The notes under the pieces: generated by a model
Seen by the model: the letters and a program-made list of their open reading frames with translations, nothing else
Databases searched by the model: none
Told to the model about the DNA's origin: nothing
Virus record (IMG/VR): IMGVR_UViG_3300028591_004246
Location: 1-64,000 of that record
Strand: one strand, 5' to 3'
DNA from: a virus
DNA length: 64,000 nt
Shown here: positions 36,849 to 37,756 of the stretch, in pieces
Layout: every line of letters starts with the position of its first letter
How positions within the stretch are numbered: position 1 is the stretch's first letter
Program-made: the position numbers and the translations under genes

Positions 36849-36886
36849 CGCCCTTGTGACGGAATTGGCAGACGTAGTGGACTCAA

Positions 36887-37662
36887 ACAAATTTGAGCAC
36901 TTAGATTTGGAAACTGCTAAGTGAATGCTGGCTAATTCGGTGAAACTCTATTTAAGTAGACAACGCCGAGCTAAATTTTTAGGGCAGACCCATATAATTT
37001 AGTCTTCCTAAATTTTATTTATATTGGATAAGTGAGACATGGAAGGATAAAAATGGGTCTAAAAAAATATTCTAAAGAATGGTTAGAAGAGCTTTGTAAA
37101 GATAGTTTTTCTTATGCAGAAGTATTAAGAAAAGCAGGTAGAAAACAAGGCGGCGGTGCTCAAAAAACTTTGAGAGAAAAAATTGAGTTATACAATATTG
37201 ATATTTCTCATTTTACAGGACAAAATTGGAGAAAAGGAAAAACTAAAAAATCTGATAGTAGACTTTTACAGCAAGGATTAAATCAAGAAAAATATCTCCT
37301 TGAAGAAGTTTTTGTAAAAAATAGTCCTGTTACTCAAAAAGTTTTAAGAGGGTATATCGAAAGACATTCTGTATTAGAATATAAATGTCAAAATTGTGGA
37401 TGTAATGGTAATTGGCAAGGTGGAAAAATTGCTCTTGAAGTTCATCATATTAATGGTGATAATAAAGACAATAGATTAGAAAATCTACAGTATTTATGTC
37501 CAAATTGCCATGCTTTAACTGATACTTATTGTGGCAAAAATAAAAAGTCCTAAAATAAATGTGTAGAGACTATATACCAGCCTCCTAAGTTGAAAAATAT
37601 GGAGAAGACATAGTCCAGACTACAACTACTTTTAGTAGGCTATGGTGACATAGTGTAGTAAG
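36887..37662 (+). mobile_element. intron-like insertion (putative group I intron) carrying HNH endonuclease
   Basis: Inserted in the anticodon loop of tRNA-Leu(CAA). Contains the HNH ORF at 37053..37553. Confidence 0.45.
37053..37553 (+). CDS. HNH homing endonuclease
   Basis: EVHHINGDNKDNRLENLQYLCPNCHALTD. Confidence 0.65.
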   Translation: MGLKKYSKEWLEELCKDSFSYAEVLRKAGRKQGGGAQKTLREKIELYNIDISHFTGQNWRKGKTKKSDSRLLQQGLNQEKYLLEEVFVKNSPVTQKVLRGYIERHSVLEYKCQNCGCNGNWQGGKIALEVHHINGDNKDNRLENLQYLCPNCHALTDTYCGKNKKS

Positions 37663-37756
37663 AAAATCCACGGGCTTCGGCCGTAAGAGTTCGAATCTCT
37701 TCAGGGGCACCAAAATGTTAATAATAATTGACGTGATAGTTAAAACAGTTACTTCT

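Follow-up and report, generated by a model that had tools for sequence, protein, structure and literature searches.

A candidate mobile group I intron with an HNH endonuclease gene in a tRNA-Leu(CAA) gene of a phage tRNA array

We analysed a stretch of 64,000 nucleotides of viral DNA (positions 1 to 64,000 of IMG/VR record IMGVR_UViG_3300028591_004246, from here on the window), which matches to PHROG families (topoisomerase II subunits, DNA ligase, DnaB-like helicase, RNA ligase and tail fibre) identify as phage DNA. Within its tRNA array, a tRNA-Leu(CAA) gene is interrupted by 778 nt that contain an open reading frame (ORF) for an HNH endonuclease. The explanation that we favour, and hold with considerable confidence, is that the insert is a mobile group I intron of the IC3-like type, lodged between positions 34 and 35 of the tRNA, that an HNH gene has colonised its P6a loop, and that it most likely still splices. 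An earlier note on this DNA had left two alternatives, a non-splicing insertion that inactivates the tRNA or a mobile intron inside a phage tRNA array; it is the second that the evidence favours.

A split tRNA-Leu(CAA) gene and the architecture of its insert

When positions 36850-36884 and 37663-37712 are joined, ARAGORN calls the spliced construct as an 85-nt canonical type-II tRNA-Leu(CAA) with acceptor and anticodon stems of 7 and 5 bp, a long variable arm, a T arm and A73; the CCA end is encoded. With its intron search switched on, the same program reads the unspliced genomic DNA as a tRNA-Leu(caa) with a 778-nt intron, while default tRNA finders give zero calls between tRNA-Gln (36774-36848) and tRNA-Val (37756-37830). 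The two ARAGORN calls bear out the earlier proposal of a tRNA-Leu(CAA) halved in its anticodon loop. Exon 1 (36850-36884; all features described here lie on the + strand) carries the 5' strand of the acceptor stem, the D arm, the 5' strand of the anticodon stem (36877-36881) and C32, U33 and C34. Exon 2 (37663-37712) carries A35-A38, the 3' strand of the anticodon stem (37667-37671), the long variable arm, the T arm, the 3' strand of the acceptor stem, A73 and CCA. The anticodon stem has 5 bp (GTGGA/TCCAC), and the insertion falls exactly at loop positions 34/35, the classical site of group I introns in tRNA-Leu, as had been suggested.

Since the intron starts with AAA and exon 2 with AAAA, several cut positions would give an identical product and the junction is ambiguous from the sequence alone. 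We placed the 5' boundary after C34 (36884) because this is the sole cut that gives both a 7-nt loop, CUCAAAA, and a terminal intron G (37662). The predicted intron then spans 36885-37662 (778 nt), its last base being the omega-G directly before exon 2, and the predicted ligated junction reads GGACTC joined to AAAATCCAC or, in a longer form, GTAGTGGACTC joined to AAAATCCACGGGC. The 3' half of the tRNA had already been placed correctly at 37663-37712, but the 5' half had been ended at 36886, two nucleotides too far downstream. The near-identity of the arms to those of tRNA-Leu(TAG) at 39183, also claimed before, holds for the D arm and partly for the acceptor stem, and not beyond those.

Read by hand with the support of its relatives, the insert is a complete group I intron of the small tRNA (IC3-like) type, with P1 to P9 and the P3/P7 pseudoknot; the reading of these helices by hand had been proposed as a check, and all of them are present in the window. 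The P1 hairpin (36882-36897) pairs CTCAAA (36882-36887) with TTTGAG (36892-36897) over 6 bp, including C34 (36884) with G36895, and TTT at 36892-36894 is complementary to the AAA of exon 2, which gives a potential P10. P2 (36898-36904/36917-36923, CACTTAG/CTAAGTG) covaries at six of its seven pairs and has a conserved GAAA in L2 (36910-36913), and P3 (36927-36931/37577-37581, GCTGG/CCAGC) is 100% paired with compensatory changes at all five pairs. P4 (36937-36942/36964-36969) is followed inside by J4/5, AAAC, and P5 (36947-36951/36956-36960), and then come P6 (36970-36971/37561-37562, GC/GT) and a P6a of 9 bp (36977-36985/37547-37555, TTTTAGGGC/GTCCTAAAA). On the 3' side, P7 (37568-37572/37611-37615, GACTA/TAGTC) leads through J7/3 to the 3' strand of P3, which P8 follows directly (37582-37585/37601-37604, CTCC/GGAG; with P8a in the region 37582-37604). 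P8 contains a canonical 11-nt tetraloop-receptor motif, CCTAAG...TATGG (37584-37589 and 37598-37602), and J8/7 reads AAGACA (37605-37610). The P9 domain (37619-37659) is a three-way one, in which P9 (ACTAC/GTAGT) encloses P9a (37626-37630/37634-37638) and P9b (37640-37644/37649-37653), the latter covarying at all five pairs and capped by GUGA, a GNRA loop (37645-37648). There is no P7.1/P7.2 and the core is compact. The GAAA of L2 with the 11-nt receptor of P8, and the GNRA loop L9, are the peripheral contact motifs of IC3 tRNA introns, and would be expected to dock in the same way.

The ORF lies in the loop of P6a. It runs from an ATG at 37053 to 37553 (166 aa, stop codon at 37551-37553), and a Shine-Dalgarno-like GGAAGGA, read from the sequence, is found at 37041-37047, 5 nt upstream of the ATG. 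The product had been described as an HNH endonuclease, which stands (Pfam PF01844, 26.2 bits against a cut-off of 21.4; phrog_10822, E 7e-51), as does the motif itself with its zinc-binding cysteines (CQNCGC...EVHHINGDNKDNRLENLQYLCPNCH); the start, however, had been set at GTG 37032 and is most likely the ATG. A PDB sequence search with the protein returned a marginal McrA-like HNH match alone. The 9-bp stem of P6a fits exactly around the ORF, with the stop codon in its 3' strand; therefore the endonuclease gene is inserted in the loop of a peripheral hairpin, an arrangement shared by many phage introns. In a metagenome variant of this locus (L151, Ga0247609_10308609), a 1-nt deletion relative to window position 37542, in an A-run near the 3' end of the ORF, would change the last few codons.

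Outside the ORF, the non-coding intron RNA amounts to 168 + 109 = 277 nt. The earlier objection, that 780 bp with a 522-nt ORF leave too little room for a group I core, fails on this count, complete ORF-less relatives being only 201-229 nt long. The Rfam model Intron_gpI aligns P1-P6 at 36875-37082 (26.0 bits, E 2.6e-4), with a second partial match at 37485-37636 (16.0 bits). Two other kinds of intron were considered and rejected: group II, which has no Rfam match here and for which 778 nt is too small, and the archaeal bulge-helix-bulge type, in view of the full group I core.

Relatives, covariation and mobility

We gathered relatives by an exact 19-mer spanning J8/7, the 3' strand of P7 and the start of P9; the loci and contigs compared with the window carry L-numbers. 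The 19-mer was found in 81 IMG/VR contigs, and in about 60 of them an intron interrupts a tRNA with a Leu anticodon at the same place as in the window. Most of these have the loop CUU/AAAA (anticodon UAA, the slash marking the insertion site) and a few have CUC/AAAA (CAA; L028, L041, L046, L047 and L080). Intron lengths in the family range from 201 to ~1100 nt. The Rfam gathering threshold was passed by five of 13 short relatives (L074, 65.5 bits; L045, 63.0; L068, 62.8; L064, 61.5; L051, 54.3), and the ORF-less relatives at 54-65 bits share ~76-79% core identity with the window, while the ORF-less L028, of the CAA type, scored 44.1 bits (E 4e-10). The earlier note had held that its intron reading would fall if no ribozyme core were detectable; the core is fully readable and relatives exceed the threshold. 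A related intron in L045 (IMGVR_UViG_3300031707_002920) sits one position upstream, at 33/34, with CT before CTGTAAAAGGGTC and AAG before TAAAATCCCT, and has U33.G in P1.

In order to score the hand-derived structure, 19 non-identical cores were aligned after removal of the interior of P6a. In the proposed structure 93.1% of cells are standard-paired, against 32-39% when the partner is slid by 1-3 columns; pairs changed on both sides number 41 against 9-20, and the covariation score is 0.376 against 0.06-0.10. None of 500 shuffles matched any of the five observed measures. Compensatory changes fall mostly in P3, P2, P8 (three of four pairs), P9b, P6a and the anticodon stem. Furthermore, nhmmer profiles built from 16 sequences outside the clade of the window matched the 64 kb at 36890-36975 (E 9e-19) and 37556-37662 (E 1e-26) only, and the second match stops exactly at the terminal G, an agreement beyond what chance would produce.

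These results bear directly on an explanation without any intron, in which a free-standing HNH cassette, like those between the tRNA genes of T5-like phages, inserted into the tRNA gene and destroyed it. The HNH gene does resemble HNH genes that stand alone in phage genomes, both as DNA and as protein, and the window intron scores under the gathering threshold of Rfam RF00028 (50 bits), so that a whole-window scan at that threshold gives no intron match; this negative is uninformative because the HNH ORF separates the two halves of the core. A cassette would not account for the presence of every group I helix with covariation, for ORF flanks that match ORF-less introns passing Rfam, or for an insertion exactly at 34/35 with a terminal G at its end, and we consider it extremely improbable.

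Scarcely more probable is removal of the insert by proteins, that is, cleavage followed by sealing by the phage RNA ligase or by RtcB-like enzymes. The window does encode an RNA ligase (phrog_548, 10629-11618) and a phrog_850 'RNA-binding protein' (21767-23218), both upstream of the array, which may form a tRNA repair module. Phage RNA ligases repair the damage done by anticodon nucleases, the insert has no bulge-helix-bulge motif, and compensatory changes preserve a complete ribozyme core that protein-mediated excision would not need.

As for mobility of the proposed group I intron, most long introns of the family encode homologues of the window HNH protein (37-73% identity), and the position of the ORF varies among relatives, being P6a in some and the 5' part of the intron in others. 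The 5' placement suggests either independent invasions by endonuclease genes or transposition within the intron. In L013, L020, L033, L039, L006 and L060 the extra sequence is in the P1/P2 region and not in P6a, and holds an HNH ORF except in L033, which has no ORF of at least 70 aa. Several family introns have truncated ORFs, or none of at least 70 aa, which is the pattern of invasion, decay and loss expected for homing-endonuclease genes. The core of the window intron is ~70-80% identical to that of most relatives, whereas the host tRNA bodies are only 55-70% identical, and some hosts are short-arm (type I) tRNAs. The cores are more alike than the tRNA bodies, a contrast that indicates mobility and fits a history in which the intron moved laterally from one tRNA gene to a different one. 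The type I hosts, of 75-78 nt and with Leu anticodons, are L041 and L047 (CAA) and L017, L053, L029, L054, L035 and L071 (UAA).

The distribution of the family extends beyond this phage. L046 and a metagenome contig of 148.5 kb (L149) are identical to the window across the locus, and L151 differs by one base. The 19-mer also occurs in 19 contigs of bacterial metagenome-assembled genomes from several phyla, some of them with introns in tRNA-Arg(UCU), and therefore the phage introns belong to a broad bacterial family of tRNA introns. The ORF-deleted core gave weak matches alone by blastn against 50,697 GenBank phage records, all of them to introns in protein-coding regions of crAss-like phages, and 20 kb of the window gave no megablast match to GenBank phages. 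Unannotated stretches resembling the J6/7-P7-P3-P8 core lie between two 'DNA primase' coding sequences of IAS virus (NC_049978.1, L143) and upstream of terL in crAssphage cr115_1 (L142); both are probably group I introns, of which the first would split the primase gene and the second lie beside the terminase gene.

Taken together, the mobile group I intron would work as follows. The array would be transcribed from promoters at ~36613-36746 into a poly-tRNA precursor, in which the intron would fold while the anticodon stem keeps the exons together. External guanosine would attack after C34, and the freed 3'-OH of C34 would then attack after G37662, so that the mature tRNA-Leu(CAA) would have the loop CUCAAAA. 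Translation of the HNH ORF, on the precursor or on the excised intron, would supply a protein that cuts intron-less tRNA-Leu genes of co-infecting relatives, whose repair would then insert a copy of the intron (homing).

The C-G pair at the 5' splice site

The earlier note passed over one oddity of the 5' splice site. The pair at the predicted cleavage site of the window intron is a Watson-Crick C34-G36895 in place of U.G, and no U.G pair occurs anywhere in its P1. Among the 19 aligned introns, the pair is U34.G in 14 and C34-G in five, these being of the CAA type, and the G is invariant.

Besides the Rfam score, several observations weigh against a mobile intron that still splices. This pair is one of them: a U.G wobble at the cleavage site is a near-universal rule of group I introns, and according to Williams (2020, 10.1101/2020.01.27.920355) the change to C-G inactivates the Tetrahymena intron. 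In addition, UUG makes up 4.3% of the Leu codons in the window ORFs, so selection for a tRNA-Leu(CAA) may be weak. The invariance of P7 and J8/7 among the relatives arises by construction, the loci having been chosen by the exact 19-mer, and is uninformative. Finally, the viral and metagenome scans contained no intron-less allele of this exact tRNA, and hence no presence/absence polymorphism of this gene. Scanned with the spliced anticodon arm, the viral sequences yielded 41 uninterrupted tRNA-Leu(CAA) genes with a best tRNA-body identity of ~77%, and scanned with the T-arm/acceptor sequence they yielded L046 alone, which is the same phage; the metagenome scan gave the identical L149, the 1-nt variant L151, and unrelated tRNAs with the T arm alone in common.

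The main rival builds on the first two of these points. It accepts a genuine group I intron, but holds that the C34-G pair makes splicing defective or very inefficient, so that tRNA-Leu(CAA) is dead or nearly so and is carried along with a still-active selfish endonuclease. We judge this unlikely, if much less so than the cassette or protein-mediated removal. Introns with a C-1:G pair are known as a bioinformatic class, 'Leu.3Cg', with 72 cases in Proteobacteria whose splicing is said to need testing (Williams 2020, 10.1101/2020.01.27.920355), and the number of these cases speaks against a dead intron, their unproven state for one. Compared by features, the window intron belongs with them, having a tRNA-Leu host, a cut after the third loop base, C-1:G in P1 and a terminal omega-G. 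Those introns are chromosomal, whereas this one has a phage tRNA array as its setting and includes a gene for a homing endonuclease.

Among the phage introns, the C-1 state is found in four distinct lineages (the window with L046, L041 with L047, L028, and L080), whose cores are intact and covarying and whose exons are perfect, and which show signs of purifying selection. L041 and L047 differ at 38 of 842 positions, with none in the exons and with all core changes in loops or preserving the pair, and their endonuclease genes have 17 synonymous against 10 non-synonymous codon differences. L028 has kept a compact ribozyme of 207 nt with no ORF, and a dead intron without an endonuclease has no obvious reason to persist. 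The array also has plenty of other C34 isoacceptors (Gln CUG, Lys CUU, Glu CUC, Ser CGA and Thr CGU, next to Leu CAA), which makes CAA look like a deliberate isoacceptor. We therefore judge that the intron has retained the ability to splice despite the C-G pair; because the pair is Watson-Crick and not U.G, splicing is probably slower than in the UAA-type relatives.

One feature of the core goes with the C-1 state. J4/5-P5 has the form AAAC...CAA, with a C.C apposition at the base of P5, in all six C-1 introns and in two of 35 U-1 introns, an association confounded by relatedness. In other group I introns J4/5 reads the G.U wobble. This association is the reason for a broader proposal, which we put forward as possible but doubtful: phage tRNA arrays may be a large undescribed reservoir of mobile, endonuclease-bearing tRNA-Leu introns, some lineages of which have adapted to a C-G splice site, thereby opening tRNA-Leu(CAA) genes to invasion. 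If true, they would offer a natural system for 5' splice-site definition without the wobble pair, and the 'ancient' tRNA-Leu intron would have in the reservoir a plausible means of spreading horizontally. A single origin of the C-1 introns found no support in a crude neighbour-joining tree, which groups the window and L046, L028 and L080 with the U-1 intron L051 and places L041 and L047 elsewhere.

Known systems and genomic context

For bacterial and plastid tRNA-Leu genes, group I introns are textbook material, and such introns with HNH endonucleases are well known from phages too. The window intron resembles the classical IC3 intron of tRNA-Leu(UAA) from cyanobacteria and plastids in its host gene family and 34/35 site, in a P1 formed with anticodon-loop bases, in the terminal G and an exon 2 that starts with AAAA, and in a small core without P7.1/P7.2 and with dependence on the anticodon stem. 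It differs from it in C34, and so in the C-G splice-site pair, in its phage host and in the HNH gene in P6a, the classical intron having no ORF. The IC3 intron of Azoarcus tRNA-Ile(CAU) is likewise compact, with GAAA in L2, an 11-nt-type receptor in P8 and a GNRA L9 that presumably docks on P5; it interrupts a different tRNA after position 36, has U at -1 and lacks an ORF. The introns of I-HmuI (SPO1 DNA polymerase) and I-TevIII (RB3 nrdB) also have an HNH ORF looped out from a peripheral hairpin, with the same logic of mobility, but interrupt protein-coding genes and not a tRNA gene.

By 2014 all known phage introns were in protein-coding genes, despite the many tRNA genes of phages (Hausner, Hafez and Edgell 2014, PMC3984707). 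A 2026 mSystems survey of complete bacterial genomes describes a Bacteroidota tRNA-Leu(UAA) intron that, like the one in the window, is a group I ribozyme with an HNH ORF in a peripheral hairpin, although it is bacterial and of the UAA type where ours is phage-borne and of the CAA type, and reports no phage tRNA intron (PMC13011429). No phage tRNA gene with a group I intron came up in the searchable literature. The kind of element is already known, and its interest lies in where it sits, a phage tRNA array, in how large the unreported family is, and in a splice site that is naturally C-G. The family of ~60 contigs shows that phage tRNA genes are intron targets, and since standard tRNA finders miss split genes, phage tRNA repertoires are under-counted. 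The family shows, too, that the tRNA-Leu intron has a mobile version, equipped with an endonuclease and potentially able to pass between phages and hosts. Its C-G pair departs, in nature, from a rule that is among the most conserved in group I catalysis.

The window has a G+C content of 30.6% and a dense tRNA array at 36774-43870, with 25 ARAGORN calls and a ROOL RNA (41280-41927, 298 bits) inside it. Just upstream of the array are two matches to the sigma-70-like promoter consensus, at 36613-36642 (12/12) and 36717-36746 (11/12), which as matches are not proof of function. tRNA-Gln(CUG) (36774-36848) ends 1 nt upstream of exon 1, a spacing that implies a polycistronic pre-tRNA. The abundance of C34 tRNAs contrasts with the AT-richness of a phage that uses G-ending codons rarely.

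Several other members of the array are unusual. A 96-nt tRNA at 37867-37962, with a long variable arm, anticodon UCA and discriminator G, is called tRNA-SeC by ARAGORN, and may act as an opal (UGA) suppressor that SerRS perhaps charges; TGA is the stop codon of six of 34 long ORFs, and wholesale recoding is not evident. At 43620-43710 there is a 91-nt type II tRNA whose anticodon is UAU and whose discriminator is A; it is uncommon for a Leu/Tyr-like body to read AUA. At 42760-42831 a match to the Rfam tRNA model (38.3 bits) has no ARAGORN call. ROOL, tmRNA and drum RNA are also found beside the tRNA arrays of related intron-bearing loci (L001, 3472-4037; L004, 6451-6796; L068, 2850-2956).

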